Below are positions 110 through 61,171 of a stretch of DNA of 64,000 nt, one piece after another. Both the position numbers and the translations under genes were made by a program. The notes below the pieces were generated by a model. It saw only the letters and a program-made list of their open reading frames with translations. It was not told the origin of the DNA and searched no databases. Each line of letters starts with the position of its first letter. The first letter of the stretch is position 1. The DNA comes from a virus (taxonomy: Duplodnaviria; Heunggongvirae; Uroviricota; Caudoviricetes): the IMG/VR virus record IMGVR_UViG_2609459792_000007, one strand, 5' to 3'.

Positions 110-257
110 GTTAACAGCCATTGATTCTCGCCTAAAAATTCTAAGGCAGCACCTACCATTTAACCTTTACACAGCAGCCGTAGGCATTTAGGCTATATCA
201 CATATAAGAAAACAAGTTGTTTCAGACAATAATAATAGACGCAAAGGGAACTCTCCA

Positions 258-926
258 ATGACCAAGATCTTTGTGGTTGGCGGCACAAAGGGCGGGCCTG
301 GCAAATCCACCGTTGCCCAGCAAATTGCCGTTTGCCTGAAAGTCAAAAAGAAGAAGAAGGTTTATATCACTGATATAGATATTCAGCGCACGACAACAAG
401 CTGGTGTGAAGACCGTCGACAGAACGAAGACCTTGAGCTGATTCCTTTTGCATACGTTCAGGATGACATCATTAAGCACCTAAAATCGCTTCAGGGTAGA
501 GCTGAGTTTGTAGTGGTAGATGCTGGTGGCTTTGACTCCGAAATTCAGCGACAAGCGATGCTGATGGCCGACGTTATCATTATCCCGCTTCGTCCTAAGC
601 GTCGTGATTTGAAATCTCTGCGTGACATCGATCCTATTATCGACAATGTTCGTAATGTAAACGATAAAGTGAAGGTCCGCGCGGTCATGAACCAGTGCCC
701 GGCTTTGCCATCACAAGTGTCTCGCATTCTGGCGGCTAAAGAGATTGTCGAGACGTTTGGCATCGAGTCTGCGCCAGTCAATCTATATAACCGCAACGTC
801 TACGATGATGCGGAAGAGTCAGGTCGTTCTATCTTTGAAATGACCGGTAGCGAGCGCGACAAAAAGGCGGAAGCCGAGTTTGAAGAATTTGTAGATTATC
901 TGTTGAGTCTGGAGGAAGAAGAATAA
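258..926 (+). CDS. parA: ParA-like partition ATPase (small, type Ib-like)
   Basis: N-terminal deviant Walker A GGTKGGPGKST; 222 aa; small overlapping downstream partner gene; acidic C-terminus. Confidence 0.7.
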   Translation: MTKIFVVGGTKGGPGKSTVAQQIAVCLKVKKKKKVYITDIDIQRTTTSWCEDRRQNEDLELIPFAYVQDDIIKHLKSLQGRAEFVVVDAGGFDSEIQRQAMLMADVIIIPLRPKRRDLKSLRDIDPIIDNVRNVNDKVKVRAVMNQCPALPSQVSRILAAKEIVETFGIESAPVNLYNRNVYDDAEESGRSIFEMTGSERDKKAEAEFEEFVDYLLSLEEEE

Positions 927-1285
927 TGTCCATGAAAATGGGTGACCTAGCAAAGCGCAAAGAGCCTGATGCACCGGCTAAGAACACAACTCCTTTGCGC
1001 CAACCAGTCAGACCACAAGGACGCCCGACTCGTGGCAAAGAGAAAATTAAAAGCCGCACTATGTCACTGGAAGACGAATACTTCGAGCTTCTGGAAATGA
1101 TGAAGTTTATCCCTCGTTTCGAGAAGTTCACCCGCTCTGATGTGATTCGTGCTGCTATTTTCCATCTGGCAGAGAAGTCACCGCAGGAAATCGAGGACAT
1201 CGTGAAACTTAACGAGGCGATCACCGCTGCCGATGTCACGATGCGTACCGATGAAATCAAACGAGAGTTGATGAAGAAAGGTTAA
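926..1285 (+). CDS. Small partition partner protein (ParG/ParB-like, putative ribbon-helix-helix)
   Basis: 119 aa; start overlaps parA stop (ATAATG); basic disordered N-terminus then short helical C-terminal domain. Confidence 0.45.
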   Translation: MSMKMGDLAKRKEPDAPAKNTTPLRQPVRPQGRPTRGKEKIKSRTMSLEDEYFELLEMMKFIPRFEKFTRSDVIRAAIFHLAEKSPQEIEDIVKLNEAITAADVTMRTDEIKRELMKKG

Positions 1286-1290
1286 AAATC

Positions 1291-1321
1291 ATGCATTGGC
1301 GCGTACATTGCGCCAATGCAT
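1291..1321. terminator. Perfect 12-bp inverted repeat hairpin (bidirectional terminator candidate)
   Basis: atgcattggcgc-gtacatt-gcgccaatgcat between convergent genes. Confidence 0.5.
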
Positions 1322-1337
1322 AACTACAGTGTCAGCT

Positions 1338-3128: not shown

Positions 3129-3171
3129 CTAATACTAGAAAACAATTTGTTTAAAAAACAAAGGAAAGCAC

Positions 3172-4512
3172 ATGACCGAACTTTGCCATACAGGACGCGG
3201 GCTGTCCGAAGAGTTTGATGAAGATTTCCAGAACAGACTGACGGCATATTTTTGTCGTGATCACGAGTTTCTTACTCGTGCGGGAGATCTGGTTGTGCCT
3301 AGCCAATTTGCCAATGCGGCCAATGCCATATTGGTTAATATGGTTTCGGGCTATTACCGTATGTACAAGAGCGCGCCCTCTTCATCTGCAATTCTGGATA
3401 TGCTTAAGCGTGCGAAACGCGATAAGACTATCCGTGAGGAACTATTCGCCGATGTTGTTGCTGCGTTTAAGCGCATCCTTGCAGAAAAATTGTCCGATAC
3501 CTCGTACATGGTTGACCAGGTATCAACCTTCGCAAAAAGCGTAGCGTTTGATGATGCTCTGATTAAGGCTGCTGAACTGAAAGAGAAAGGCGACTTTCAG
3601 GGGGCGATGGCAATCATGGCCAAGGTTCAGCAGATTGGATCGAACGAAGCGACCGGAATCTATGACTACTACACCTCCGCAAGTGAGCGATTGAAAGCGC
3701 GTGAATATGAGGCTTCAGAGGAGTATGTGCCAAACAGCATTACAACTGGACTCCCTCTGCTCGATAGGTTGCTGTACCAAAAAGGCTGGGCGAAGCGTGA
3801 AATGGTGCTCTTCATGGGGTTCGCTAAATCCGGTAAATCGACCGCAATGGGTGAGTTTTCCATAAACGCAACGCTTGCTGGCTACAATGTTCTGTATCTC
3901 TCGCTGGAGGTTCACACCAACATTTTGTCCGACCGTTTTGATGCAAGATTGTCGGAGACGGAAATGTCCAAGTTGGTGGAACGGCGCGATGAAGTTCATC
4001 GTAAGTTGGCAGAGTTGGGAGCCTCTAAGGGGATTGGTAGTTTGTGGGTTGTTGAGCGTCCGTCAGGAAGTATGTCACCGGCAGATCTGGACCGTATGCT
4101 TAACAGCATGAAAGCCAACGGCATGGTGCCTGACATGGTTGTTGTCGACTACGCAGATTTGATGCGTGCCAGTTATGACCTTCGTGATGATCGCGCCAAC
4201 ATTCGTAGTATCTACACCGATTTACGTGCTCTTTATGACAAGCATAACGTTGCTGGTATCACGGCGTCGCAAACAAACCGTGAAGGTGGCGCGTCAGAAG
4301 TTGCCACAATGATGCACGCTGCCGACAACATCGAAAAAGTACGTATTGCTGACCTGGTAATAACGATCAACAAAACCGAAGAAGAAGAAGCGAAAGGAGA
4401 GGCTCGTCTCTACTTTGCTGGTTCGCGTAACCAGCAGGGAGGGATCAGCATTCGCGTTAAACAAAACCTCGAACAAATGCGCTTCATTGAGCGGATCTTA
4501 GACGTTACCTAA
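3172..4512 (+). CDS. DnaB-like replicative helicase (RecA-fold ATPase)
   Basis: Walker A GFAKSGKST, Walker B-like MVVVDYADL, C-terminal RecA-like core; conserved aaaggaaagcacATG start context. Confidence 0.75.
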   Translation: MTELCHTGRGLSEEFDEDFQNRLTAYFCRDHEFLTRAGDLVVPSQFANAANAILVNMVSGYYRMYKSAPSSSAILDMLKRAKRDKTIREELFADVVAAFKRILAEKLSDTSYMVDQVSTFAKSVAFDDALIKAAELKEKGDFQGAMAIMAKVQQIGSNEATGIYDYYTSASERLKAREYEASEEYVPNSITTGLPLLDRLLYQKGWAKREMVLFMGFAKSGKSTAMGEFSINATLAGYNVLYLSLEVHTNILSDRFDARLSETEMSKLVERRDEVHRKLAELGASKGIGSLWVVERPSGSMSPADLDRMLNSMKANGMVPDMVVVDYADLMRASYDLRDDRANIRSIYTDLRALYDKHNVAGITASQTNREGGASEVATMMHAADNIEKVRIADLVITINKTEEEEAKGEARLYFAGSRNQQGGISIRVKQNLEQMRFIERILDVT

Positions 4513-4593
4513 AAAATAAGCGTGGAGAACACCTCCACGCTTGATTCATTGGTGAAACAACTTTTCTTTTGCCAAACCACAAAAGAAAAACAC

Positions 4594-5775
4594 ATGAGCC
4601 TTTATGTTATATCAACATTTAGGTTGGTCACAATATTGCCTGTTAAAAGTGGAATTATCGTGAGCGAGCTGAAAGAGCTAATTACCGAATTAGATTTTGA
4701 ACAATGGTTGGACACTGAAGGTATCGTTTATCGACGTGGAGGCGTGAGTGCTCGCGGTCGTGAAGTGAATATCAAGGAGTGTCCGGTATGCGGCAGCTCC
4801 AACTGGAAGGTATATTTCAATCTGACCAGTGGCGTCGGCAAATGCTTTGCTGGTGATCATCCCGAAGAGATTCAGTTCAATAAGCTGGTCTTCCTCAAGC
4901 ACTACAGCGGTAAATCACGACGACAGTTCGAGGAATATGTGCAGAACGCTCTTCTTTCCCAGGGGTGGGCACCAAAGAAAGAAGAGCTAGTGCTTGCAAG
5001 CACAGTCGAGTTAGAGGGGCCAGTTGCACTCCCTCGTCATTACGAGCTTCCTATAGATGGCCGTCTTCCAGACTATCTGGTTGAACGAAACATATCACCT
5101 GAAATGGCAAAGTATTTTGACCTACGATACTGCGTCGAAGGCAAGCACGCTTATGTAGATCCGTATACAGATCAGGTAAAAGGGCAGATATTCGATATGC
5201 GAGTACTGATACCGGTTTACGATCTGGATGGGGTAATGAAGACATTTCAGGGACGAGACATTACCGGTACAGCAGAACGCCGCTACCTCTTTCCTATGCA
5301 GCTTCCAGCTTCAGGTAAATTTCTCTACAACGGCCATAATGCAGTCGGCAAACAGACTGTAGTTGTCTGTGAGGGTGCGTTCGATGTTATGGGGGTCAAA
5401 CGAGCTATTTTCGACGAAGAAACATTACGTGATTACGTGGAGCCAATAGGAACGTTCGGGATGCATCTATCTGGTAACACCACTCAGGATGCAGAAGATC
5501 AGTTAGGCGCGTTCCTGACGCTCAAGGCGCGTGGGTTACGTAATGTGATCATGATGTGGGATAGTGAAAAGCAAGCTATACGCAACACTATGGCCGCAGC
5601 CAGGCGACTGACCAGTATCGGTCTTAATGTCAAAGTTGCGTGTTTGGGTGAGGAAGGACTCGACCCGGGCGGTGCAACGCCAGAACAAATTATCAAAGCC
5701 TATTATCGGGCAAAACCGTATACCAAACAGTTGGAGTTGCAAAGCAAGGTTTTGGGCATTAAGGCGCTATCGTAA
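4594..5775 (+). CDS. DNA primase (zinc-ribbon plus Toprim)
   Basis: CPVCGSS...C..GDH zinc-binding motif; Toprim-like VVVCEGAFDV and MWDSE; start chosen at cacATG 4594 rather than track start 4522. Confidence 0.65.
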   Translation: MSLYVISTFRLVTILPVKSGIIVSELKELITELDFEQWLDTEGIVYRRGGVSARGREVNIKECPVCGSSNWKVYFNLTSGVGKCFAGDHPEEIQFNKLVFLKHYSGKSRRQFEEYVQNALLSQGWAPKKEELVLASTVELEGPVALPRHYELPIDGRLPDYLVERNISPEMAKYFDLRYCVEGKHAYVDPYTDQVKGQIFDMRVLIPVYDLDGVMKTFQGRDITGTAERRYLFPMQLPASGKFLYNGHNAVGKQTVVVCEGAFDVMGVKRAIFDEETLRDYVEPIGTFGMHLSGNTTQDAEDQLGAFLTLKARGLRNVIMMWDSEKQAIRNTMAAARRLTSIGLNVKVACLGEEGLDPGGATPEQIIKAYYRAKPYTKQLELQSKVLGIKALS

Positions 5776-8491: not shown

Positions 8492-8667
8492 TGCTCGGCT
8501 GGATGATTGCATTTTTAGCGGTTGGTTTTTTAATCGGTATTGTGGTGATGTCCAGTTGCATCAATGACTACATTAAAAGCGGTGTTATAGAACGACGCGG
8601 TCGTATTTATCGCATTGTAGAAATAACCCACACAGTGAAGGAGATTAAGGATGATCGTATTAAGTAA
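8488..8667 (+). CDS. Small membrane protein (paralog A)
   Basis: 59-aa ORF below track cutoff; hydrophobic segment AFLAVGFLIGIVVM then ...YRIVEITHTVKEIK; paralog of ORF at 8863. Confidence 0.4.
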   Translation: MMLGWMIAFLAVGFLIGIVVMSSCINDYIKSGVIERRGRIYRIVEITHTVKEIKDDRIK

Positions 8668-8866
8668 GCGGGAGAAGGAAACGCTTCATGAAATCAGTAA
8701 GTGGCCGGAGTTCCCTGAGTACTGGAAGCCTAAAACGCGGGCTAAGTTAGAGCGGTTAGGGTTGGTTGCAAACGTTTCTGAAACGTGGTGTTCGGCCAAC
8801 TACCAGTTAACTGATAAAGGGAAAGTATTGCTACAGCAATTAGTAGAATCAGGAGCGTTAAAATGA
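8651..8866 (+). CDS. Hypothetical small protein
   Basis: 71-aa ORF between paralogous membrane ORFs. Confidence 0.4.
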   Translation: MIVLSKREKETLHEISKWPEFPEYWKPKTRAKLERLGLVANVSETWCSANYQLTDKGKVLLQQLVESGALK

Positions 8867-20300: not shown

Positions 20301-20848
20301 ACCCCAAACGATCGGCTGAAATTAACGCACTCATGACACGGATGGCGGCTGAAATGGGCTTAGGTGATGAACTAATCCGCCCCAGCATTGGTATTAAGCC
20401 GAAAATCATGATCATTCTGGACAATGCAAACGGCAATGATGCTCGAACCGGTTACTTCATGGAGAACGGATACGACGATTTTAAGGCCAAGCTGTTGACG
20501 GCTGGAGATTTGCGCATGGGCGATCTCTATGTCACAGGCGTTTGCAAAAAGGTGAAAGACAAAGAAAAGGACTACACCAAAGACGAGATCGGCCAGTTCA
20601 CCGACTTTATGCGTGAAGAGATCAATCTGGTACGTCCGACCTATGTGCTGACGTGTGGCAGTCGGGCAACGGCATTGTTTAACAACAAAAACAAGCCATC
20701 CGATTTAGTCGGTAGGAAGGAGTATCTTCCAGACCTTGACGTTACAGTCTTTTACGGGTTTAACCCCAACATTCTTTACTTCAGACCTGAAGAGGGAGAA
20801 CGACTAGAAGCGATATTAGCCGACGTAGCAGAAACTATTAAGTCGTGA
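17330..20848 (+). CDS. DNA polymerase III alpha-like replicative polymerase (PHP domain)
   Basis: 1172 aa; DnaE-type motif GPGRGSSAGSLVAWCIGIT; N-terminal PHP-like region; conserved cacATG start context. Confidence 0.85.
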   Translation: MKALMVRTDFSLGESALKAENAVKIAREAGYTAVISADSMNIASVIPLQRAAGDDMAVICGVKLNIVDDPTYEHRAKLAKESMRCMESLERGRNYSFTALIKNEQGYRDICELMTAANTREQFYFVPRLSLEQLVSTYAKGNIILLTSDIGSVFQRNDFAKIISTLITAGGKDNFYSVVYPHPTPFYDQINVRAMKVASALKIEPVAFYPAYYESIDDADIKDIAHMVTNNIKIDQPHRLRIPHQRDNAVNGRRHLLEALKAFSVRMDVPVTAAMASTTQDSIIEACTWRWHELPPALPKMADDEPATLMKLAVAGLRKRLTTKEFGYTPPASENRVYVERLKYEMDTLTRLGFCGYFLMVRDLMNHSRETGIPVGPGRGSSAGSLVAWCIGITNVDPIRHGLLFERFINPERLDLPDADLDFSQARRHEVIEYLNERYGEDYVAGIPNFTYLGAASALRDTARIYGVESADMAVSKELKNAEDDSLPLEELREQLASLDKYATKYPDAFNAACKLQSLMRGFGRHAAGMIVAGVPLTERTPVERRGDARCIAFDKRYCEAMGLIKLDVLGLATLDLLDSAKRYIKENTGEDINLDAISLEDRKVLDGFAAGYTQGVFQLESGPMRKLLKDLGGGIEPMSFKTVVATTALFRPGPIQSGMLDDYVSVAKGFMTPESLHPVLDELTAETNGVILYQEQTMNATRLLAGFTMAEADAVRSAIGKKNMEKMKSMGEKFIVQAQAGWIDVELEDGTTQRIHRAEHFKCEDGTLKTVEEALEHGAKLPINAVRVTASHPGLSEMKAKEIWTAFEKNGAYQFNKSHSVAYSLISYQSMWLKTHYPAEFFAAALTILGEDKHQGLVKDALTYGIRVLPPDVNVSSNRIEIRTLEDGSQVLYAPFSAVKGCSENGCQAIMRAREKVGGKFESLAQFEEAVEKRACNSRVRESLQKVGAFASIEPGSLPATDPERLRDQAELMGNLVIDAVKASRPFEMNPKRSAEINALMTRMAAEMGLGDELIRPSIGIKPKIMIILDNANGNDARTGYFMENGYDDFKAKLLTAGDLRMGDLYVTGVCKKVKDKEKDYTKDEIGQFTDFMREEINLVRPTYVLTCGSRATALFNNKNKPSDLVGRKEYLPDLDVTVFYGFNPNILYFRPEEGERLEAILADVAETIKS

Positions 20849-20857
20849 TCCAATAAA

Positions 20858-20882
20858 CATGGCCTCTATGGCCATGTTTTCT
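20858..20882 (+). terminator. Terminator after polymerase gene
   Basis: catggcc-tctat-ggccatg hairpin plus T-run. Confidence 0.6.
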
Positions 20883-20973
20883 CTTATCCCCTCATATCCC
20901 CTATCCTCGAACTCCTTGCCTTATCATCACAATGATATAATCAATATAAGATGATAAGTAAAAAGGAAAGCAC

Positions 20974-21405
20974 ATGATCACCGATATTTACGAGAAAATA
21001 ATGTCTGATCTCGAGTTTGACCGAGACAATCTGGAGGAAGTCTGGCGTAGACAACCCCGCCTTTTAATGGAGTATGGCTCAAAACTCGCTCATGCAGAAA
21101 GAAGTGTCGCAGAGGCAAAACTTAACCTTGAAGCTGTTGAAGCAAAGCTATACGACACAGAGCGTAAGAACTTGAGTATGAACGGCATTAAGTTCAACGA
21201 GTCTGTACTGGACGCTAAGGTTAAAACGAACCCACAGTATCTATCTAAACGGCAGAAGTTGGATGAAGCACGGCACATCGCAGACATATACAAACATGCT
21301 GTCGCCGCCTTCACGCATCGCCGAGACATGATCGTTCAGGCGTCGAAGATGGCCATCGTTGAATTAGAGCGATTAGGCTCTGAACGCTTTATTACTCCCC
21401 GTTGA
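20974..21405 (+). CDS. Hypothetical coiled-coil protein
   Basis: 143-aa ORF; conserved aaaggaaagcacATG start context. Confidence 0.45.
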   Translation: MITDIYEKIMSDLEFDRDNLEEVWRRQPRLLMEYGSKLAHAERSVAEAKLNLEAVEAKLYDTERKNLSMNGIKFNESVLDAKVKTNPQYLSKRQKLDEARHIADIYKHAVAAFTHRRDMIVQASKMAIVELERLGSERFITPR

Positions 21406-23824: not shown

Positions 23825-24898
23825 ATGGCAAAAGGAAAATCCGCACTGGCACTTGCTCTGAAAAAGAAAATCGGTAGCAACGACGAAATTCAGAAAGTAA
23901 CTCATTGGATTGACACAGGCTTTCCTCCGTTAAACAAAGCTATTTCCGGTCGTTACGATGGCGGTTTCCCATGTGGTCGTATCGTAGAAGTATTCGGGCC
24001 GCCAAGCGCGGGGAAAACCTTTTTGGCAACAGCAGCAATGATCTCCGCTCAGAAACAAGATGGTCTGGCGGTATTCCTCGATCATGAGAACAGTTTTGAC
24101 GTTGGCCTGGCGGTAGCCAATGGCTTGAATGCAGATGAGGATGACGGTCAGTGGGTATACAAGCAGCCAGATACCTTCGAAGACTCTGTAGAGTTGATCG
24201 GCACAATACTTAAATTGGTACGTGATGAAGAGCTTATCCCTGAATCAGCACCTATCTGTATCGTGGCTGACTCACTTGCGTCTATGGTTCCGAACTCCAA
24301 AGCCGAGAAGTTCGAAAAGATGGCTGAAGGCACTGCTAAAGACAAAGATCAGCTAAACATGAACGACAATACGGCGCTTGCTCGTGCGACGAGCGCAAAC
24401 TTCCCCACTCTGGCTTTGTGGGCACGCAAATATAACGCCTGCATTATTTTCTTGAATCAGGTTCGCACAAAAATCGGTGTAATGTTTGGCGACCCTACGA
24501 CGTCGCCAGGCGGCGATTCACCGAAGTTTTACGCTTCTGTGCGCATCCGTCTCGGTGCATCGGTGATGAAGGATGGTAAAGAGAAGATCGGTCAGGACGT
24601 AGGCGCAGAGTGCATCAAAAACAAAGTTGCACCACCGTATGGCAAGTGCACCTGGAAATTCTACTTCGATCCTACTCGTGGCCTCGACGTTATCGAATCG
24701 CTCGTCGAGTACATGCTGGAAGAAGGATACCTGCCAAAGAACGCCAGCGGTCGAGTAGAAATTGGTGACAAGAAATACACCAAATCACAGATCGTCGAGA
24801 TGTATCGGGAGAAGCCACTAGCTGAAATCATTGCGGCTTTACAGGCAATCGACGACCGGAGATCAAAAGACAATCCCACCGAGTCAGTAGAAGAGTAA
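23825..24898 (+). CDS. RecA-like recombinase
   Basis: Walker A GPPSAGKTFLA; RecA-like core VEVFGPPSAGKT...FLDHENSFD. Confidence 0.8.
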   Translation: MAKGKSALALALKKKIGSNDEIQKVTHWIDTGFPPLNKAISGRYDGGFPCGRIVEVFGPPSAGKTFLATAAMISAQKQDGLAVFLDHENSFDVGLAVANGLNADEDDGQWVYKQPDTFEDSVELIGTILKLVRDEELIPESAPICIVADSLASMVPNSKAEKFEKMAEGTAKDKDQLNMNDNTALARATSANFPTLALWARKYNACIIFLNQVRTKIGVMFGDPTTSPGGDSPKFYASVRIRLGASVMKDGKEKIGQDVGAECIKNKVAPPYGKCTWKFYFDPTRGLDVIESLVEYMLEEGYLPKNASGRVEIGDKKYTKSQIVEMYREKPLAEIIAALQAIDDRRSKDNPTESVEE

Positions 24899-24927: not shown

Positions 24928-24990
24928 ATCTCTTGAAAATATATAAGTACTTACTTATCATTTTCACATAACAACCACATAGGAAAACAC

Positions 24991-25191
24991 ATGATCAAAA
25001 TCTATCTATTGGCAGTAGCCACAGGCCTTTCAGTGGCTCTCATCTACGGATTACTGGTTCCGTCGCTGATTTCTGCAAAGAGTGATTTGGCCGTCATGCT
25101 TGGAGTTATTGTTGGTTTTGGCGCTCCAGTAATCGGTCTTATTGGTGGTCGTAAGTTTATTAACTCATTAATCAAAGCAAAGGGGAAATAA
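24991..25191 (+). CDS. Small two-TM membrane protein
   Basis: 66 aa; two hydrophobic segments; stop 4 bp before SPFH gene start. Confidence 0.45.
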   Translation: MIKIYLLAVATGLSVALIYGLLVPSLISAKSDLAVMLGVIVGFGAPVIGLIGGRKFINSLIKAKGK

Positions 25192-26043: not shown

Positions 26044-26066
26044 GGCGTCCAGTTGGACGCCGTTTT
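26044..26066 (+). terminator. Terminator after SPFH gene
   Basis: ggcgtcc-agtt-ggacgcc hairpin plus T-run. Confidence 0.6.
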
Positions 26067-26120
26067 ATTCTCGTTATTATCACATACAAGAAAACAATTT
26101 GTTAAAAGGTAAAGTTAATT

Positions 26121-26945
26121 ATGCCCAACCACATTACAAACGAAATCCGAGTCATAGGTGGTACAAATAAACAACGCTTAGATTTCATACGTGCCATAAC
26201 TAACAAAAAAGGTCTAATTGACTTTAATACCATTTGCAGACGTCCGAAAAGTATAGAAATGGAAGAAAACAATCATATCAGGCGCATGGCCTCTGCAATG
26301 GCGGGCGAAACAGTTTACGACTACATGTTCGGTGAATTAAAGACTCCAGAACAGGTCGAATTAGCTATGCGTGAATCTGGAATGACACGCAAGGAAATTC
26401 GCAAAATCAAAGAGCAGGCTCTTATGCGGCTTGAGAATTATCGTCGCTATGGCTATTACTCATGGTTTGACTGGTCGCGAGCTAATTGGGGAACAAAATG
26501 GAATGCCTACAACATCGAAATGCCCGTAAAACGTATCCCTACACGTATTAAGTACGGCCATAATTTCCGCCATACACACATTCGAGCATATGCAAAACGA
26601 ATCTATAAAAAACGTCTTGCAAGACATGCCGCAACTGGTGGTGAGTTGGTGATTCGCTTTGAAACAGCCTGGTCTATGCCAAAACCAATTTATCAAGCGA
26701 TGGCTAGAAAGTTCCCGCACCTTGAGTTTGTAATACGTTATGCAGACGAAGACTTCGGCAATAACTGCGGATTCATTTTACTTCGCAACGGCAAATGGGA
26801 ATATGACTACATTGCACCGGCGAATAACGAACAATCGTCAGAAGAAAAAATCAAATGGCGCAAGTTCGCCTTTGAGTTATGTTGTCCTGGTATCACTCCA
26901 CAAGAATACGGTCTAAATGAAGAATACGAATACGCCGGATATTAA
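26121..26945 (+). CDS. Hypothetical protein (Trp-rich, basic)
   Basis: 274-aa ORF in AT-rich island; no confident family assignment. Confidence 0.45.
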   Translation: MPNHITNEIRVIGGTNKQRLDFIRAITNKKGLIDFNTICRRPKSIEMEENNHIRRMASAMAGETVYDYMFGELKTPEQVELAMRESGMTRKEIRKIKEQALMRLENYRRYGYYSWFDWSRANWGTKWNAYNIEMPVKRIPTRIKYGHNFRHTHIRAYAKRIYKKRLARHAATGGELVIRFETAWSMPKPIYQAMARKFPHLEFVIRYADEDFGNNCGFILLRNGKWEYDYIAPANNEQSSEEKIKWRKFAFELCCPGITPQEYGLNEEYEYAGY

Positions 26946-26990
26946 AGAATTGTCATTTGGCTTTACGCTCGAAGCATAGTGGTTAAGAAG

Positions 26991-27731
26991 ATGAAAAGAA
27001 AAATTGAAGAACCAAAAACGACACTTAATAAACATGGGGAAAAAATTCAAACACACCCAGCGTTCGGTCTTGTGAAAACAAGCCGTGTTAGCACGACTGG
27101 CATTCGTCTATTTGATTCAGAACTGGAACATAGAGACTATATTGAAATAGGCGTTTACGAGGCTGAACTGTCCTTAGACAATGAACGAACCCGGCCACAA
27201 AGGAGTAGCAATAGACGGCCTTTAGTTGAAATTAGACTTAGCCAGGCACAATGGGCTGCTATGGTTAGCAGTTTTGGTGTGGGCGAAGGTGTGCCATGCA
27301 CTATTTCATATAAAACCATTGGCGACTCAATTAGAGTTCATGATATTGCCGAGCAAAAAAGTATTCGGCAAAAATTCAACGATCAAATAAAGGCAGCTAC
27401 GAATAGTGAGATTGATCGACTTAATCAGCAAGTTTCAGAGCTAGGTGAGCTTGTGAAAAAAGGAAGAGCTGGAAAACGTGACCTTGAAGAACTATATAGA
27501 AAACTTGCATCTGCTGTAGCTAACCTTCCTGAAAATCTGTGCTTTGCTACCGAATTAATGCAGGAGCAAATGGATGAAATTGTCTCATCTGGAAAGGCGG
27601 AGATTGAGGCGTATGTTGCAGGCACTGTTATGCGTAAAGGGTTAGCAGCATTAGGCACAGAATCATGCATTAACGATGATCCTACTGTCTCTATCACCAA
27701 AATGGAAAGCGGTAAAGAATTACTGCCATAA
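26991..27731 (+). CDS. Hypothetical protein
   Basis: ORF; ATG at 26991 preferred over GTG at 26979. Confidence 0.4.
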   Translation: MKRKIEEPKTTLNKHGEKIQTHPAFGLVKTSRVSTTGIRLFDSELEHRDYIEIGVYEAELSLDNERTRPQRSSNRRPLVEIRLSQAQWAAMVSSFGVGEGVPCTISYKTIGDSIRVHDIAEQKSIRQKFNDQIKAATNSEIDRLNQQVSELGELVKKGRAGKRDLEELYRKLASAVANLPENLCFATELMQEQMDEIVSSGKAEIEAYVAGTVMRKGLAALGTESCINDDPTVSITKMESGKELLP

Positions 27732-27751
27732 ATGCATCTGAGGTACTGACA

Positions 27752-28141: not shown

Positions 28142-28143
28142 AT

Positions 28144-28278
28144 ATGACTTTACGTTGTTTTTTCAAAGGGCATAGTTTTTCACTATACAGAAACAGAAAT
28201 AATAATGGGGCATTCTACATATGTAGTAAATGTGGGAGGACAAAATATCTTCCAGATGTCAAATTTGAAGGTCCTTAA
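28144..28278 (+). CDS. Small Cys-rich (zinc-ribbon-like) ORF
   Basis: 44-aa ORF below track cutoff: C-x4-H ... C-x2-C (CFFKGH...CSKCG); starts 3 bp after the previous stop. Confidence 0.3.
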   Translation: MTLRCFFKGHSFSLYRNRNNNGAFYICSKCGRTKYLPDVKFEGP

Positions 28279-28304
28279 ATGTTTGCATTAAATGGGCAAT
28301 ACAG

Positions 28305-29432: not shown

Positions 29433-29487
29433 TCGCCTATTCATAACTAACAAAATAAGTAAACACTAACCACAAAAGGAAAAACAC

Positions 29488-33459: not shown

Positions 33460-33713
33460 CCCTCCAGATCGTATATTGGCGTAGATAGAATCTACGCCCC
33501 CTCAAAATAGCTCTCATAGCGTTCTACAGTGATCCTGTCTTATTTTTAGTCATACAGACAAGCAAAGTTGCGCCACGATAAATAGGTATATACTTACTTA
33601 TAAATTTTGTATATTAAGGCGCTCGTTTCATTCCTAACATACCGTTATGCATAGTTGTTTACCTCCTCATTGCTCTTAGAATTTGTATCAAAATAACCAC
33701 AAAGGAAAAACAC

Positions 33714-34799
33714 ATGACTTTGCCATACGGCGTCATTTCTGACTGCCACTACCACAAATGGGATGCGTTCTCCACGACGAACGCTGAGGGGCTTAACTCC
33801 AGACTTGAAATACAGTTGGAAGCAACGAAAGAAGCAGCCATCGCCATGAAGAAGGCCGGTTGTAAGTACATGTTGGTTGCCGGTGATACATTTCACGTCC
33901 GAGGAACTGTGTCCCCTTCTGTTTTGCATTACGTAACTGAAACGTACAAGTGGATTATCAACGAGCTTGATCTGACAGTAGTAATGCTGGCCGGTAATCA
34001 CGATCTTGAAACCAACGATTCAGTATATAGCGCCAACGCAGCAGCATCGCTGAGTTCTATCGGCGTGGTAATCGTATGTGGCAAGCGCCCACACTCAATA
34101 AAAATTGGTGATGTGACTGTCCACCTGATTAGCTGGCGTAACAATCATGCGGAGCTTATCAGCGATCTGAAAGCATTACGTAAGAGCGTAGAAGGTGATA
34201 ATCATGACGTTGTTATCCATACATCCATTAACAAAGCCATTCCAACAATGCCTGACGTCGGTATCGATGCGCAGGAGTTAAAGGATATCGGCTTTCGTCT
34301 CGTGCTTAGTGGGCATTACCACAACCACAAAGAGGTCATTCCTGGAGTTATCAGTGTCGGTGCACTGACTCATCAAAATTGGGGAGATGTTGGATCTCTG
34401 GCTGGCTACATGATCGTAAACCCGGACGGCAGTTTCAGTCACTACGAAACCAGTGCGCCTAAATTCATTAACCTGGAAGATGATGTTGCTGATGACCAAA
34501 TTCGCGGCAACTACGTGCGTTTCCGCGCCTTAATTGAGAACGATGAAGAAGGCATTAAGTACCAGAACATCCTCAAAACAATGGGTGCAAAAGGTGTCGT
34601 GTGCAACTTCATCCGTAAGTCATCAATGATGGAAGGTACAGCCAGCACAACTGAAACCAGCAAAATCGATAGCCTTGGAGAGTCGGTATCTGCTTATTGC
34701 AAGATTGTCCACGATACTGACGGCGGATTTGATCTGAGCAAATTGGATATTTTGTGTCAGGAAATCCTCACCGAAGCGGAGAGTTCGGAGGCTGTGTGA
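33714..34799 (+). CDS. SbcD/Mre11-like nuclease (calcineurin-like phosphoesterase)
   Basis: Motifs ISDCHYH, VAGDTFH, LAGNHD, SGHYH; conserved cacATG start context. Confidence 0.75.
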   Translation: MTLPYGVISDCHYHKWDAFSTTNAEGLNSRLEIQLEATKEAAIAMKKAGCKYMLVAGDTFHVRGTVSPSVLHYVTETYKWIINELDLTVVMLAGNHDLETNDSVYSANAAASLSSIGVVIVCGKRPHSIKIGDVTVHLISWRNNHAELISDLKALRKSVEGDNHDVVIHTSINKAIPTMPDVGIDAQELKDIGFRLVLSGHYHNHKEVIPGVISVGALTHQNWGDVGSLAGYMIVNPDGSFSHYETSAPKFINLEDDVADDQIRGNYVRFRALIENDEEGIKYQNILKTMGAKGVVCNFIRKSSMMEGTASTTETSKIDSLGESVSAYCKIVHDTDGGFDLSKLDILCQEILTEAESSEAV

Positions 34800-38330: not shown

Positions 38331-40646
38331 ATGATAAGCATCGTAAAACGTAACGGCCAAACAGAGCCGTTATCCGAAGAAAAATACAACCGCGTCGTAA
38401 TGTATGGCGTAGAAGGCATTCGTGGTGTAAGCGCATCCGCTGTAGCAATGGGAGCTGCGGCCAGCATTTTTGATGGGATTACCACCAGCCAGTTGCATGA
38501 GGCTTTGGTTAAATCTGCCGCTGATTTGATCTCACCAGAAGCACCAAATTACTCACAGGTGGCTGCCCGCCTGAACATTTTTAAAATCCGCAAAGATGCC
38601 TTCGGTCGTTACGACTATCCGAACTTCTACCAACACATTGTCAAGAACGTTAACAAGGGCGTTTATGACAAGGATTTGCTGACACATTATTCGTTTGAAG
38701 AGATCGAAGAACTCGGCAATTACATTAAGCCGAAACGTGACGATCTTTTTGGCTATGCAGCTACGGTGCAGTTGCAAAGCAAATACCTCGTTCAAAACCG
38801 TGTTACTGGTGAGATTCATGAGGGGCCGCAACATATCTATATGCTGGTAGGCATGTGTCTGTTCCAGAATTGGGAAGACGACTGCGCTGGCAAAACACGT
38901 ATGGAGATGGTCAAAGGTTTCTATGACGTTACAAGTACGTTCAAACTGTCTCTGCCCACACCAATCATGGCCGGCGTCCGTACTCCAACCCGTCAGTTCT
39001 CCAGTTGTGTGCTGATTGAGTCTGGCGATAGTCTGAAAGGGATTAGTGCAGCTTCAGCCGCAATTATCGACTACGTTTCACGTCGTGCTGGAATTGGTAT
39101 TGGTTTTGGCCGTATCCGTGCGCTGGGCAGCGAGATCCGCAATGGTGAAGCCACCCATACTGGAGTTATTCCATTCCTGAAGCATTTCCAGACGGCTGTT
39201 AAATCTTGTTCGCAAGGTGGTGTTCGTGGTGGCGCAGCAACAGCGTTTTACCCGATCTGGCATCTTGAAGTTGAAAGTCTGCTGGTGGTGAAAAATAACC
39301 GTGGTATTGATGAAAACCGCGTTCGCCATCTTGATTACGGCGTCATGAGTAACCGTCTAATGTACCGTCGACTCGTCAGAAGCGAGAACATCACTCTGTT
39401 CAGCCCGCATGATGTGCCTGATATGTACGAAGCCTTCTTCACAGACCAGGAGCTGTTTGAAAAGCTGTACCATAAATACGAAGCCGATGATTCAATTCGC
39501 AAGAAGTCAGTACCTGCCATTGAGCTGTTCTCATCTCTGATGCAGGAACGAGCGTCCACGGGCCGAATTTATATTGCGAACGTCGATCATATTAACGAGC
39601 ATGGCGCTTTCATTCCTGCTCTTGCACCTGTTCGCCAGTCAAACCTGTGCATGGAGATCACTCTACCCACTCGTCCACTGGCATTTACCGACGACCCGAA
39701 CGGTGAGATCGCGCTATGCACTTTATCCGCTTTTAACCTCGGAGCCATCCGTTCACTGGAGTCTCTTAAAGAGGTGGCGTTCTATGCCGTTGCTGCACTG
39801 GATTCGTTACTGGATTATCAAGACTATCCGATGGAGGCAGCCGAAGTGCCTGCCAAAGCTCGTCGTAGCTTGGGAATTGGTGTAACCAACTTTGCTTATT
39901 ACCTGGCAAAGAATGGCGTTCGTTATTCTGATACCGCTGGCAATAAACTGGTGCATGAAACGTTCGAAGCTATCCAGTATTACCTTCTTGATGCCAGCTG
40001 CCGACTTGCTGAAGCAAAAGGTGAGTGTGACTGGTTTGAGCAGACCAAGTACGCAATTGGTCAGTTGCCGATCGACCATTACCGTTCTTCATTAGACGAA
40101 AGTGGCGAAACCAACTTTGAGTTAAAGATGCCGTGGGAAGAACTGCGTGAACGTATTGCAAAATACGGCCTTCGCAACTCCACACTGACGGCACAAATGC
40201 CATGCGAGACTTCCAGCCAGATCACTAATTCCACCAACGGCATCGAACCGCCTCGTGGACCGGTGTCGGTGAAATCTTCTAAGGACGGCATCGTTAAGAT
40301 GGTCGTGCCTGAGTTTGAAAAACTGAAGGAACAGTATGAATACCTGTGGGATATGCCGGACAACCGCGGCTATCTGACAAAGGTGGCGATCATCCAGAAG
40401 TTCTTTGACCAGGCTATTTCAGCCAATACCAACTATGACCCTTCTCGCTTTGAAGGCGATAAAGTCCCAATGATGACGCTACTGTCAGATTTGCTTCTCG
40501 CCTACAAGATGGGAGTTAAAACGCTTTACTACCACAACACCAGAGATGGGGCAGGAAAGCGTGATGACGACGAACCGCAGAATCCACTGACGCAAGCTGT
40601 AGCCGTCGAGCCAGAAGATGAGTGCGACGGAGCCTGCAAAATCTGA
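38331..40646 (+). CDS. nrdA: Ribonucleotide reductase class Ia large subunit
   Basis: 771 aa; N-terminal ATP-cone-like region; followed by nrdB. Confidence 0.85.
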   Translation: MISIVKRNGQTEPLSEEKYNRVVMYGVEGIRGVSASAVAMGAAASIFDGITTSQLHEALVKSAADLISPEAPNYSQVAARLNIFKIRKDAFGRYDYPNFYQHIVKNVNKGVYDKDLLTHYSFEEIEELGNYIKPKRDDLFGYAATVQLQSKYLVQNRVTGEIHEGPQHIYMLVGMCLFQNWEDDCAGKTRMEMVKGFYDVTSTFKLSLPTPIMAGVRTPTRQFSSCVLIESGDSLKGISAASAAIIDYVSRRAGIGIGFGRIRALGSEIRNGEATHTGVIPFLKHFQTAVKSCSQGGVRGGAATAFYPIWHLEVESLLVVKNNRGIDENRVRHLDYGVMSNRLMYRRLVRSENITLFSPHDVPDMYEAFFTDQELFEKLYHKYEADDSIRKKSVPAIELFSSLMQERASTGRIYIANVDHINEHGAFIPALAPVRQSNLCMEITLPTRPLAFTDDPNGEIALCTLSAFNLGAIRSLESLKEVAFYAVAALDSLLDYQDYPMEAAEVPAKARRSLGIGVTNFAYYLAKNGVRYSDTAGNKLVHETFEAIQYYLLDASCRLAEAKGECDWFEQTKYAIGQLPIDHYRSSLDESGETNFELKMPWEELRERIAKYGLRNSTLTAQMPCETSSQITNSTNGIEPPRGPVSVKSSKDGIVKMVVPEFEKLKEQYEYLWDMPDNRGYLTKVAIIQKFFDQAISANTNYDPSRFEGDKVPMMTLLSDLLLAYKMGVKTLYYHNTRDGAGKRDDDEPQNPLTQAVAVEPEDECDGACKI

Positions 40647-40752
40647 CATATGGTGGGGGATATCCCCACCTTCTCTTTGATTTGTAAGCCTTGTTTAAAC
40701 ATATAAGATAACAACTTGTTTAAACGCACCAAAAAAGAAAAAGGAAAAACAC

Positions 40753-50884: not shown

Positions 50885-50977
50885 CGGTTGTTAGTGCATA
50901 TGCATTGACCGTCTTTTCGTAAGCAATTCATGTAACTAGAAAACAGCTTGTTTTAACAAATAACAAAAGGAAAGCAC

Positions 50978-51561: not shown

Positions 51562-51700
51562 TGACAAGGGCCAAATGGCCCTTGTGTTTCGTTGACCGAA
51601 ATAGAGAGTTTGCACCTTTACGTTTAGCTTGCTCCCCTTTTATGCCACATCACAATAAAGCCAATAAGAAAACAACTTGTTTAAGCATTAGGAAAAACAC

Positions 51701-52607: not shown

Positions 52608-52609
52608 TT

Positions 52610-56159: not shown

Positions 56160-56278
56160 ACGCTACAAATCCTTCGGCATGAATAAATAAAGGCCATAAG
56201 TTGTGGCCTTAAATAAATTGTTTTCTACCTTTTCTTATTTGTGAAAATAACCACAACTAGAAAACAACGGAGTTAAGA

Positions 56279-56920
56279 ATGTCTAGTATTTCCGAAGCTC
56301 ATATGTTCGCCGCTGGCGCTCATGGTGGCGTTGGTCAGAAAAGAAAATATACCGGCGAAGACTACATCAACCACCCGGTTGCTGTCCGAGAGATTGTTGC
56401 ATTGCATGACGGAACCGTGGAGATGCAAATCGCGGCGCTTCTGCATGATGTGGTCGAAGACACCCATGTAACCATAGAGATGGTTCGTGATCACTTCGGT
56501 GAGCGCGTAGCTGAAATGGTTCAGGCTCTGACCAACATTGCAAGGCCAGAAGACGGCAATCGAATACAGCGTTTCATCATCAATGTCCGGGAGCTGGAGC
56601 AAAATCTCGACATGCAGACGCGCATGATCAAGCTGGCTGACCTGCTCGACAATACCTCTTCTATCGTGAGTCGCGATCCTGAGTTTTCAGCTATCTACCT
56701 TGCAGAGAAAGAGCTGATGCTGGACGTACTTTTTAACGGGAAGGAGATTGGTGCCAACGCTGATGTTGTCGAGTACATGGAGAGGATAGGTATAGAACAC
56801 CCGTTGTTATTAAGCGCAATGGCGAAAGTCACTGAAGGTATTGCGCTTCTGAAACCGGTACACATCAAACGTTATGAAAAACACAAATCGCTGATCTGGA
56901 GCGCGTGGGAGGCTGCATGA
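56279..56920 (+). CDS. HD-domain hydrolase, SpoT/Rel hydrolase-like (small alarmone hydrolase candidate)
   Basis: YINHPVAVREIV...AALLHDVVEDT matches the HD motif of RelA/SpoT hydrolase domains; 213 aa, no synthetase domain. Confidence 0.65.
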   Translation: MSSISEAHMFAAGAHGGVGQKRKYTGEDYINHPVAVREIVALHDGTVEMQIAALLHDVVEDTHVTIEMVRDHFGERVAEMVQALTNIARPEDGNRIQRFIINVRELEQNLDMQTRMIKLADLLDNTSSIVSRDPEFSAIYLAEKELMLDVLFNGKEIGANADVVEYMERIGIEHPLLLSAMAKVTEGIALLKPVHIKRYEKHKSLIWSAWEAA

Positions 56921-58637: not shown

Positions 58638-59305
58638 TGACCACCGTTAACAATAAGAAATGCTACCCAAGCGAGAAATATCTTAATGAGCTGATCACCA
58701 ACATTGAGTTCGCTGCAAGGGCACCAGTTGAAGTCGTGAGAGCGATTGCAGCAGAGCTACAGAAGTACCGTAAGGCCTATGCCAATACAGCCGCAACTAA
58801 GGATGGTTGGATAAGCTGTAGTGAGCAGATGCCTGTAATTGGCGAGCTAAATTGGAGAACTAGTTTTCCTTTGCTGATTACGTGTGAGATCGGCGTTATA
58901 CCTGCTTATTACGGCTTTGTAAGCATTAATGGTGAAAGACATTATGGCTTTATGGAGAGTTTTAAATACGGAGATGAGCACGGCAACCACCCTCAAACTA
59001 ATGAATATGGCTTCATTAGTAATGTCACACACTGGATGCAGCTACCAGAACGCCGCAGGAGTCGAAGAGTGAATAAAGCAGAGTTATTTCAGAAAATATC
59101 GGCTCTCGCGACTGAATGCCACGCTATAGCATCTGAGCTTGATGTTGGCGGTGAACGAACCGAGATGTTCGAAATATACAGTGTGCTGCGCAATCTCTGT
59201 CGGCGTGGCTACGCTACTCAGGTGGGGCGAATGACTAACCCACTACTCTCATCCTGTGATGAGGATGACTCGGATGAGGATGACTCGGATGAGGATGACG
59301 AATGA
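58637..59305 (+). CDS. Hypothetical protein with acidic DEDDSDEDDSDEDDE tail
   Basis: 222 aa; C-terminal Asp/Glu/Ser repeat. Confidence 0.4.
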   Translation: MTTVNNKKCYPSEKYLNELITNIEFAARAPVEVVRAIAAELQKYRKAYANTAATKDGWISCSEQMPVIGELNWRTSFPLLITCEIGVIPAYYGFVSINGERHYGFMESFKYGDEHGNHPQTNEYGFISNVTHWMQLPERRRSRRVNKAELFQKISALATECHAIASELDVGGERTEMFEIYSVLRNLCRRGYATQVGRMTNPLLSSCDEDDSDEDDSDEDDE

Positions 59306-59685
59306 TGCATAAATCAGTAGCCGGTGAGTTTCAGAAGGAAGTCGATAATACCACTGATCTATTGGACGATATTTTAAGCATTCTCGCGCTGCTTGAGGCT
59401 GGCGATTGGTCAGAACATTGCACTAAAACAGAGCTAGGCGGTCGGCTTGAAAGAGAGATTACACGACTGATTAGCGATGCCCAAAATGATTTGTCACCTG
59501 AGCATCTCCCCTGCGATGTAGTCCTTGTGCCAGGGGTGAGGATACACGAAGGCGTCAGAACGAAAACATTATTAACCGCATTACAGAGAAGAGCCGAACT
59601 AAGCTCGCGGATAAAGTTGATGCCATCCAAAATATTTGATGTCGTCAAATTTACGCCATCGCAACATACTGAGAGAGATAAATGA
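59302..59685 (+). CDS. Hypothetical protein
   Basis: 127-aa ORF, translationally coupled. Confidence 0.4.
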   Translation: MMHKSVAGEFQKEVDNTTDLLDDILSILALLEAGDWSEHCTKTELGGRLEREITRLISDAQNDLSPEHLPCDVVLVPGVRIHEGVRTKTLLTALQRRAELSSRIKLMPSKIFDVVKFTPSQHTERDK

Positions 59686-60497
59686 GCACGGTAGCGAAAG
59701 ATCTCACAGAAGATATTCTCAATGAAATTATTGCTGGTGCAAATACCTCGCTTGAGCAACTTCTTGCGTTAGCACTGAGAGCCGAACGTCGAGACAGAAA
59801 TCGTTTTTATGAGCGATTACCAGGGAAGCGACCAGATAGATCGGATGAAGAAGGTTGCGATATAGACTACATGGAGCCTTCAGAGATTTATCAACTTGGT
59901 AAAGATGACGGCTGGAACGCTTATCACGATGCTGTGATGAAGTTGGATGAAAAAGTTAAACCTCTTTCTCGACCGGTAGATCACGGTTTCCGCGATAACT
60001 GCGAATGCTCTAGTTGCCAGACCACGGCCCGTATTTGTTCCGAATTGACAGATAAGTCCAGCCTAATCTACGAAGTTAATGTAGGCGGTAATACATGGGT
60101 CGAATGCACAAGAGCTGCATACGTAAGAGCAAAAGACAAGGGTGAATTAACCAGAGTTGTTACCCATCACCCAAATAATGAGCTTAAAGATCACCAGATT
60201 CGAGAACTAGTGAACGAGTTGCGGCATATTGCGGTTACGTATCACGGAACGCAGCAATTGCGGGAGAAAATTGCCAGAGCAGTGAACAACTCGCTCAAAG
60301 GTGGACAATCCCAACCGAAACGTATACGAATTACACATATAGGTGAAAACGGAACAGAAATCCCCCAATTTTCTGTTGGGGACATCTTTGATGTACATGG
60401 AGAAGAGTTTGGCGAGCCTCACATCACTATGCCTAGTGGCCATGTTTATTGGCTAAGAGCTATGGAGAAATATGGTGATAAATGGGAAGTGTTATGA
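59682..60497 (+). CDS. Hypothetical protein
   Basis: 271-aa ORF. Confidence 0.4.
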   Translation: MSTVAKDLTEDILNEIIAGANTSLEQLLALALRAERRDRNRFYERLPGKRPDRSDEEGCDIDYMEPSEIYQLGKDDGWNAYHDAVMKLDEKVKPLSRPVDHGFRDNCECSSCQTTARICSELTDKSSLIYEVNVGGNTWVECTRAAYVRAKDKGELTRVVTHHPNNELKDHQIRELVNELRHIAVTYHGTQQLREKIARAVNNSLKGGQSQPKRIRITHIGENGTEIPQFSVGDIFDVHGEEFGEPHITMPSGHVYWLRAMEKYGDKWEVL

Positions 60498-60510
60498 GGG
60501 ATGCTAAGTT

Positions 60511-61035
60511 ATGACTAAATTTGGAAAGCTGGAAGCTCATTTGCTAACTCGTAACTACCGCCATGATGTGCATCCATATAGACAGTGGATCGATGAAAGC
60601 GAAGGAGTTGTTACATTCCCTCTATACAGGTTTGATGGGATGTTGGCCGGGTATCAGACATACAGACCAGGCGCTCCTAAGCAGCATAGCAATCCGAAGA
60701 TGGCCCGGTATTTCACACGAGCGCACGGCAGACAGCTACTATGGGGAACCTATCTTCCTTTAAAAGATGGACCGATATGGATAACTGAGTCGATTTTTAA
60801 AAGTGCAGCAGTGCACAACGCGGGCGGAAATTCGTGGGCGCTGTTAGGTTCGACTTTCTCAGCAGGATTACGTCGTCAACTGGCAATGCTGCCGTATGAC
60901 TTTCGCGTAATAGGTGACAATGATGCGGCTGGTGAATCACTTGTGAAGTCTTTCGGAAAAGGTTTTGTGGCCCCGGATCTTGACGAGCTACAACCAAATG
61001 AAGTGTCTCATTTGATTTTTAGCCATAGCCAATAA
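60511..61035 (+). CDS. Toprim-like domain protein
   Basis: ITESIFKSAAV (Glu) followed by GDNDAAG (DxD) in Toprim-like spacing; tentative. Confidence 0.35.
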   Translation: MTKFGKLEAHLLTRNYRHDVHPYRQWIDESEGVVTFPLYRFDGMLAGYQTYRPGAPKQHSNPKMARYFTRAHGRQLLWGTYLPLKDGPIWITESIFKSAAVHNAGGNSWALLGSTFSAGLRRQLAMLPYDFRVIGDNDAAGESLVKSFGKGFVAPDLDELQPNEVSHLIFSHSQ

Positions 61036-61171
61036 GCATCCCTTCTCCATTAAGGCCACTAGTTGTGGCCTTAAACAATTTGTTTTCTACCTTTTCTTGT
61101 TCGAGAAAATAACGTTCCTTTGTCTGGTGCTATGTACCGAACAGTTGCACTGAGTGAGCTTCTTTCATGTA

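Follow-up and report, generated by a model that had tools for sequence, protein, structure and literature searches.

A recurrent promoter-dyad cassette as a candidate regulon signal in SSU5-like phage-plasmids

SSU5-like phage-plasmids (pHCM2, pLF82/Cyrano, and many elements of Klebsiella, Enterobacter, and Salmonella, some of them with resistance genes) are common in clinical Enterobacteriaceae, and the literature that could be searched yielded no account of how their genes are regulated. Here we ask what role is played by a palindrome that recurs shortly before start codons in a 64,000-nucleotide stretch of DNA from IMG/VR virus record IMGVR_UViG_2609459792_000007 (the whole stretch is referred to below as the window). 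An earlier note on this DNA had described the palindrome together with a nearly invariant context of the start codon and had proposed that they serve translational or RNA-level co-regulation. The window belongs to an SSU5-like phage-plasmid. It shares 97 to 98% identity with Escherichia phage Cyrano (pLF82) and with CMS-2020a, and ~80% with Salmonella phage SSU5; its counterpart in Cyrano spans ~29 to 92 kb. Its genes, which lie on the + strand nearly throughout, are for partition, replication, recombination, nucleotide metabolism, and accessory functions.

We give about even weight to the view that the palindrome is one component of a repeatedly used cassette (terminator, extended -10 promoter, dyad operator, and leader) that defines a co-regulated regulon of early, replication, and accessory genes. 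In this model, palindrome and start context would be parts of one intergenic cassette of ~90 bp, reused by SSU5-like phage-plasmids before early, replication, nucleotide-metabolism, partition, and accessory genes. Its parts would be, in order, the terminator hairpin of the upstream gene; a host sigma-70 promoter relying on the -10 element, often extended to TGnGATAAT, and having hardly any -35 or none; a CA-rich region of transcription start, AACACCAACA; a 13-bp dyad, AAACAAnTTGTTT, centered at ~+14; a strong AAGGA/GGAG Shine-Dalgarno sequence; an A-rich spacer with a terminal CAC; and the ATG. The element would most likely encode a dimeric regulator that binds DNA and has the dyad as its operator. 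Sitting over +5 to +20 (compare lac O1), such a regulator would stop initiation or promoter escape at all cassette promoters together, and an inverted copy at ~-38, 51 bp away, would permit cooperative binding or looping in some cassettes. The leader, common to a second class of promoters, would yield unstructured, efficiently translated mRNAs. Systems of this kind are already known (P1 C1 operators, RK2 Kor sites, lac-type operators, and the PeSL elements of phages), and the proposal is useful rather than surprising, dispersed operators and promoter cassettes being well known in P1, RK2, and T4. We found no description of this particular cassette in the searchable literature.

Copies, predicted promoter anatomy, and conservation of the cassette

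That the palindrome recurs upstream of start codons is borne out by counts in the window, where AAACAAYTTGTTT with at most one mismatch has 13 matches (9 sites, some matched on both strands) against 0.46 expected, and 0 of 100 shuffles had as many. A 32-nt weight matrix sets 7 strong + strand copies, with scores of 34 to 41, apart from everything else. Copies of AGAAAACAAnTTGTTT comprise these 7 gene-oriented ones, with AGAAAACAAnnTGTTT cores, all intergenic and with the center of the palindrome 23 to 42 nt before the next + strand ATG, and 2 inverted ones, in which the same 16-mer stands straight after a terminator-like hairpin (Table 1). The positions first reported need some adjustment: the copy placed at 217-235 is ~10 nt off, and the "variants" at 56211 and 61066, though genuine, are the two inverted copies beside hairpins.

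The start context, said to open more than a dozen genes, is present at 12 of the 12 starts that had been listed, and a search of the window for AAAGGAAARCACATG with at most two mismatches gave 10 matches against 0.43 expected. Among the 49 genes whose upstream gap exceeds 40 nt, 12 have CAC directly before the start, compared with 1 of the 31 tightly packed genes; CAC thus marks first genes after intergenic regions. We read the context, from its sequence, as a stereotyped, unstructured, strong ribosome-binding leader, with an AAGGA Shine-Dalgarno sequence ~7 nt from the ATG and an A-rich spacer. Leaders of the form AACCACAAAGGAAAAACACATG have the CA-rich block and the succession of Shine-Dalgarno sequence, spacer, and CAC in common with the palindrome cassettes, with the dyad absent, and this leader also occurs at promoters bearing another dyad, TAAGTAnnTACTTA. 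The primase gene, which has the complete conserved leader AAACCACAAAAGAAAAACACATG, probably starts at ATG 4594; in the Cyrano annotation it starts at an in-frame GTG 66 nt downstream.

The promoter part of the cassette was examined in an alignment of 29 gene-oriented copies from four genomes, anchored on AGAAAAC, which include orthologues and hence are not independent samples. A single conserved block runs from TGnGATAAT through TTGTTTA, in the order TGnGATAAT, AACACCAACA, AGAAAACAAnTTGTTTA, and then, usually, AGGAG. The T at -11, the last T of TGnGATAAT, is found in 29 of the 29 copies. In 23 of them AGAAAAC is preceded at 0 to 12 nt, mostly 10 to 11 nt, by a -10-like hexamer, defined by A2, T6, and at least 4 of 6 matches, compared with a mean of 12.2 and a maximum of 21 in 500 shuffles, and TGn precedes the hexamer in 16 (shuffles: mean, 0.55; maximum, 3). 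Of the 7 window copies in gene orientation, the cobT one alone has TGn; TGn is also found in the module at 56240. At 120 IMG/VR loci, 109 of 137 exact cores have a -10-like hexamer. Because the usual distance from hexamer to start is 7 nt, we infer that transcription starts in CCAACA, which would place AGAAAAC from ~+5 and the center of the dyad at ~+14. The predicted leader of 25 to 45 nt is of ordinary length. The palindrome had been thought too close to the ATG for a standard promoter; with a -10-like hexamer upstream of the motif in most copies and the motif itself in the opening ~20 nt of what would be an ordinary short leader, that argument falls.

Terminator-like hairpins lie upstream of 6 of the 9 copies; the cobT hairpin was not flagged in the same scan. 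In that hairpin (13625-13657), compensatory double substitutions distinguish the window (CTGCGCGAA/TTCGCGCAG) from SSU5 (CTGTACGAA/TTCGTACAG) and thus indicate a selected structure. Several cassettes have a second, inverted copy of the 16- to 20-mer exactly 51 bp upstream, centered at ~-38, and in these double-copy cassettes the core promoter sits between the arms of a 20-nt inverted repeat. The 56190-56281 module and its SSU5 orthologue consist of hairpin, upstream copy, TGtGAAAAT, the left block AACCACAACTAGAAAACAA, and GGAG, with the right arm absent. One double-operator cassette in the SSU5 record (~93.68 kb; ~40055-40070 of stretch L005) has an exact DnaA box, TTATCCACA, between its upstream dyad and the -10 element.

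The motif stands at orthologous sites (parA, dnaB, cobT, nrdB, and others) in SSU5, in Klebsiella pJN2-26, and in vB_Kpn_1825-KPC53, where the flanks have diverged, and three-genome alignments show it as a conserved island amid diverged intergenic DNA. These footprints show two distinct conserved islands, one at the -10 element and one at the palindrome; at the cobT site GTGnTAnATT is conserved. Orthologous copies are thus retained in SSU5 and two Klebsiella relatives between genomes of only 75 to 80% identity, which shows that the motif is more than the product of recent duplication, the outcome that the earlier note had named as a possible refutation. Cyrano and SSU5 have more copies outside the window, before small ORFan genes, with ~13 to 20 copies per genome, and the exact 17-base core is found in at least 120 IMG/VR stretches. 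These observations support the idea of a co-regulation signal common to many transcription units. With its predicted start and operator, the cassette would provide a map of a regulon that takes in parA, dnaB, cobT-dnaE, nrdB, and accessory and ORFan genes, and it would offer a handle on the switch from plasmid maintenance to lytic growth.

Action on DNA or on the transcript

The conservation of the dyad is mirror-symmetric, with information per position over the 29 copies of 1.45/1.93/1.93/1.56/1.71/1.49 in one arm and 1.45/1.93/1.71/1.56/1.93/1.21 in the other. Changes at its sole G:C position, C6>T in two copies and G12>A in two or three, never occur together and so do not compensate each other. 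Folded as RNA, the palindrome forms a hairpin of -0.5 to -0.7 kcal/mol, and the leaders (minimum free energy, -0.5 to -5.2 kcal/mol; z, -1.3 to +1.1) are no better folded than shuffles. Rfam covariance models found 3 tRNAs only, none of them at the motif. An RNA hairpin or riboswitch-like element is ruled out by the negligible fold, the shuffle-level leaders, the absent compensation, and the lack of an Rfam match. Of the earlier proposal, the co-regulation half stands, and the RNA half is not directly supported by these results. Mirror-symmetric arms, absent compensation, and a negligible hairpin make a dimeric regulator that binds DNA more likely than an RNA structure. The upstream-only copy of the 56190-56281 module lies outside that promoter's own transcript, as do the other upstream copies.

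A translational operator recognized as single-stranded RNA is a separate case, which we consider unlikely. Here an RNA-binding repressor of the phage-plasmid would attach to the transcribed AGAAAACAAnUUGUUUAAGGA, cover the neighboring Shine-Dalgarno sequence, and destabilize the mRNA, as with FljA on fliC mRNA and T4 RegA on early mRNAs. The gene-oriented copies, all of which lie between the predicted -10 element and the Shine-Dalgarno sequence, suit such an operator, and their A-rich tract followed by a U-rich one would resemble Hfq-type ligands. A candidate exists in the FljA homologue CYRAN_114/SSU5_121 (Cyrano 100780-101301, - strand, outside the window); no other gene shared across the family is annotated as a transcriptional repressor. 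It is a full-length match to FljA (PF03614; E, 1e-80), and its predicted structure has two tandem Sm/Hfq-like domains, an RNA-binding fold, and no helix-turn-helix. The FljA-like clade (53 to 98% identity) is found on contigs of ~100 to 115 kb from Escherichia, Salmonella, Klebsiella, Enterobacter, Cronobacter, and Citrobacter, and matches named phase-1 flagellin repressors are just ~40% identical to it. Klebsiella is normally without flagella. Since the gene belongs to the core even of the Klebsiella elements, the target of its product is suggested to lie on the element rather than in host flagellin (fliC) mRNA. FljA itself blocks translation of fliC mRNA (PMC2652032), and the FljA-like gene is expressed in growing lysogens, at log2 7 to 8 (PMC9928086).

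Mirror symmetry, however, has no rationale in single-strand RNA recognition, the negligible hairpin is not kept by compensatory changes, and the upstream inverted copies and the upstream-only module cannot act from outside the transcript of their promoter. The 5' untranslated region of E. coli fliC aligns locally with the cassette leader with a score of 8, which 28% of shuffles reach, and the fliC leader was therefore rejected as a homologous FljA target; nor does the motif stand upstream of the FljA-like gene itself. The resemblance to T4 RegA sites and to FljA on fliC thus consists in a site that, in many early mRNAs, lies in the leader beside the Shine-Dalgarno sequence, and in a FljA-family protein on the element, whereas palindromic symmetry, non-transcribed upstream copies, and the lack of significant fliC-leader similarity do not fit. 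A more specific version, in which the leader would be the mRNA operator of the FljA-like tandem-Sm protein in a RegA-like translational regulon of ~15 to 20 early and replication genes and Salmonella FljA would be a domesticated offshoot, seems to us quite unlikely.

If instead the dyad is bound as DNA by a dimeric regulator, a conserved 71-amino-acid protein with a predicted winged-helix fold (Table 1) is a candidate for the binder. The CYRAN_45-like helix-turn-helix repressor (12762-13148) is an unlikely one, as SSU5 has the motif but no homology to that region, and the ParG-like protein (926-1285) was likewise considered unlikely. To our knowledge, the dyad fits none of IHF, PhoP, OmpR, FNR, CRP, LexA, Fur, and the 434 operator ACAA-N6-TTGT in spacing or sequence. 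A Pfam search of 10 ORFan proteins encoded behind the best cassettes gave a DUF5983 match only.

In RNA sequencing of the Cyrano lysogen (LF82), genes behind motif promoters have values of 5.7 to 25 against a median of 9.8, which is background, with the exception of the parA operon at 50 to 89; the winged-helix gene is also at background (PMC9928086, S1 Table). Background expression is what promoters silent in the plasmid state would give and does not discriminate between mechanisms; because nearly all motif genes are at background, these data are uninformative on promoter activity.

Silence in the lysogen would also be expected if the ~35-nt block were a positive promoter element, recognized via a phage-encoded activator or sigma-modifying factor and inactive until that factor is made. 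The conserved block is contiguous rather than bipartite, with no conserved -35, and the upstream copies at ~-38 take the position near which class II activators bind. We nonetheless see only a slim chance for this explanation, as the main copy lies downstream of the -10 element, at ~+14, a repressor-type position, and an extended -10 normally suffices for sigma-70 with no need of an activator. An RNA polymerase or sigma-like gene was not found in the element either: every large open reading frame (ORF) of Cyrano and SSU5 is otherwise annotated, and Pfam and PHROG scans of ~45 ORFs were blank, although small sigma-like factors could escape both. A promoter for a phage RNA polymerase (T7- or N4-like), which the contiguous block resembles, was rejected because the element has no polymerase gene.

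Several points weigh against a repressor acting on DNA at the dyad, besides the orthologues in the alignment. The gene-oriented copies, all predicted to be transcribed and all adjoining the Shine-Dalgarno sequence, are equally compatible with an RNA-level operator. The parA operon is active in the lysogen despite a perfect dyad, and its promoter also has a good -35, TTTACA. A simple sigma-70 scan that needs both -35 and -10 finds no promoter at the motif sites, because it demands a -35, and the -10 matches are poor at the nrdB, TerB-like, and parA copies of the window. Finally, a symmetric dimer does not account for the asymmetric left block AACACCAACAAGA, whose conservation equals that of the dyad and speaks for action on RNA, or for the invariant G of AGA.

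Table 1. Positions of cassette copies, leaders, and associated features in the window
Feature	Position	Strand	Next ATG	Remarks
Terminator-like hairpin upstream of parA cassette	87-104	+		From terminator scan
Candidate sigma-70 promoter of parA operon	166-194	+		TTTACA, 17 nt, TAGGCT; ends 12 nt before AGAAAAC; read from sequence
Copy 1, AGAAAACAAGTTGTTT	207-222 (palindrome 210-222)	+	258 (parA)	36 nt before ATG
Copy 2, AGAAAACAATTTGTTT	3137-3152	+	3172 (dnaB)	Conserved in three-genome footprint
Start context, AAAGGAAAGCACATG	3160-3174	+		Same context ends at 4596, 17332, 20976, 21525, 24993, 29490, 33716, 40755, 50980, 51703, 55077
Decayed cassette before primase gene	4554-4596	+		GAAACAACTTTTCTTTTGCC, then leader AAACCACAAAAGAAAAACACATG; hairpin 4518-4542 just upstream
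71-amino-acid protein, predicted winged-helix (MarR-like) fold	8651-8866	+		In operon headed by copy 2
cobT cassette	13625-13691	+	13711 (cobT)	Hairpin 13625-13657; extended -10 TGcTACATT 13658-13666; copy 3, AGTAAATAATTTGTTT, 13676-13691
Cassette with copy 4	26044-26104	+	26121 (Api92-like ORF)	Hairpin 26044-26061; -10 TATTAT 26075-26080; motif 26089-26104; left junction of 2.9-kb insertion
Extended CA-rich leader, AACCACAAAGGAAAAACACATG, palindrome absent	33695-33716	+		Similar leaders at 29468-29490, 4575-4596, 24972-24993
nrdB cassette	40652-40721	+	40753 (nrdB)	Hairpin 40652-40670; copy 5, AGATAACAACTTGTTT, 40706-40721; weak -10; orthologous copies in SSU5, pJN2-26
TerB-like gene cassette	50890-50953	+	50978 (TerB-like)	Hairpin 50890-50909; copy 6 at 50938-50953
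Cassette with copy 7	51564-51682	+	51701 (ORF)	Hairpin 51564-51585; -10 CACAAT 51651-51656; motif 51667-51682
Module with upstream operator only	56190-56281	+	56279	Hairpin 56190-56210; inverted copy 56211-56226; TGtGAAAAT 56240-56248; leader block AACCACAACTAGAAAACAAC 56249-56268 without right arm; GGAG; also recombination junction
Truncated module	61050-61114	+		Hairpin 61050-61074; inverted copy 61073-61088; promoter remnant ACCTTTTCTTGTTCGAGAAAATAACG

Mosaicism, partition, and known dispersed-operator systems

Some cassettes coincide with junctions of genome mosaicism. When the window, Cyrano, and SSU5 are compared, homology breaks off within cassettes at 26101/26109 and 56180/56253, and behind the 26089 copy the three genomes have three different cargoes. 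In the window this cargo is a 2.9-kb insertion (26110-28987), absent from Cyrano and SSU5, which starts inside the motif, stops at ATATTAAAAGGAG, and encodes an Api92-like/DUF1281_C protein (26121-26945) and several ORFans. Cassettes also stand between ORFan genes in Cyrano, SSU5, and pJN2-26, and they would thereby mark sites of cargo-gene swapping.

These junctions suggest an explanation in which the cassettes are mobile promoter/terminator units whose likeness is kept by gene conversion and spread, with a dyad that has no dedicated trans factor. The model for it is the PeSL elements of T4-type phages, repeated cassettes of a sigma-70-like promoter and a terminator stem-loop (PMC2839356, PMC4122927). 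As with PeSLs, the cassettes lie between and flank small nonessential ORFs, and at two loci they coincide with insertion or replacement junctions. Unlike them, they belong to a temperate phage-plasmid, have an added conserved dyad and a stereotyped leader, and in many copies precede core replication genes. The case for mosaicism rests on two loci, 2 of ~21 window-versus-Cyrano breakpoints, for which we estimate that ~0.3 would be expected by chance. The copies at dnaB, cobT, nrdB, and parA, moreover, are stably orthologous across genera; that the dyad is kept there while the flanks diverge points to purifying selection on the dyad itself. Recombination at cassettes is compatible with a regulatory role and not a true alternative to it, and we regard it as improbable that recombination by itself accounts for the motif.

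The copy directly upstream of parA, a place where type Ib centromeres and operators are found, raises the further question of whether the copies are dispersed, centromere-like partition sites for the small ParG-like protein whose gene (926-1285) follows parA. Precedents are the dispersed centromeres of N15 and the KorB sites of RK2, and the 119-amino-acid partner protein is at 89 in the lysogen. But a single dyad, rather than a repeat array, stands upstream of parA, and the fixed register with the -10 element at ~30 promoters speaks for control of transcription. That the ParG-like protein is of the ribbon-helix-helix type is read from its sequence only, with no match in Pfam. Judged by sequence, its site is more plausibly sought in TAGGC-type repeats around the parA -10, and we consider partition sites a highly improbable explanation of the dyad. 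Repeats of the TAGGC/GCCTA type (ctAAGGCagcaCCTACc ... ccGTAGGCattTAGGCt) lie over the putative parA promoter at 140-200 of the window and are near-invariant in SSU5 and KPC53, where the promoter stretch 166-194 is also near-identical; the repeats might serve the ParG-like protein as operator or centromere.

Read as a dispersed operator for a DNA-binding repressor, the dyad finds its closest parallels in plasmid and prophage biology. In P1 and RK2, one regulator controls many units via dispersed operators. As with P1 C1 and RK2 KorA-KorB, a short operator is scattered here over the promoters of a ~100-kb plasmid/prophage, including those of a dnaB-type helicase gene and of partition genes. The sequences are unrelated, however, and the operator proposed here, a symmetric dyad of 13 bp, has a fixed place after the -10 element, inside a conserved leader. 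The asymmetric 17-bp P1 C1 consensus, ATTGCTCTAATAAATTT, has 0 matches in the window with up to three mismatches, which rules out a P1 C1 operator. The arrangement is also reminiscent of lac O1 with its auxiliary operator, since the dyad would be centered at ~+11 to +14 and some cassettes have an upstream copy ~5 helical turns (51 bp) away. It differs from lac in that the start site is a predicted one, the upstream copy lies partly over the -35 region, and no protein that forms tetramers or loops is known here.

A second dyad and other features of the element

A second dyad, TAAGTAnnTACTTA, often within aTGATAAGTAnnTACTTAyCTATCAT, is more abundant than the palindrome, with 51 matches against 14.6 expected. 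Its sites in the window (2241, 2362, 9315, 15839, 21421, 24945, 29457, 29788, 33584, 38268, 42985, 47821, 50036, and 55015) are intergenic and in or near promoter spacers, and it also occurs between late structural genes in both Cyrano and SSU5 and, in Cyrano, a short way before terS. It probably marks a separate class of promoter or operator and is probably what the earlier note had listed as its first motif. At the start of the SSU5 record (53-93), two tandem palindrome dyads, 25 bp apart, precede terS, where Cyrano has a dyad of the TAAGTAnnTACTTA type.

Compared with Cyrano, the window lacks ~1.3 kb of the recA-like gene, probably an intein (window 24016-24026), as well as Cyrano's hicAB toxin-antitoxin cassette (20814-20975), and a GIY-YIG (LEM-3-like) gene on the - strand (1284-2206) replaces CYRAN_30. 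A perfect LexA box, TACTGTATGAATGAACAGTA, at 61172-61191 lies 17 nt upstream of an S24-peptidase (UmuD-like) gene (61208-61597), which in LF82 is highly expressed and increased in macrophages, and a second LexA-like box is found at 11618-11637, upstream of the integrase region.

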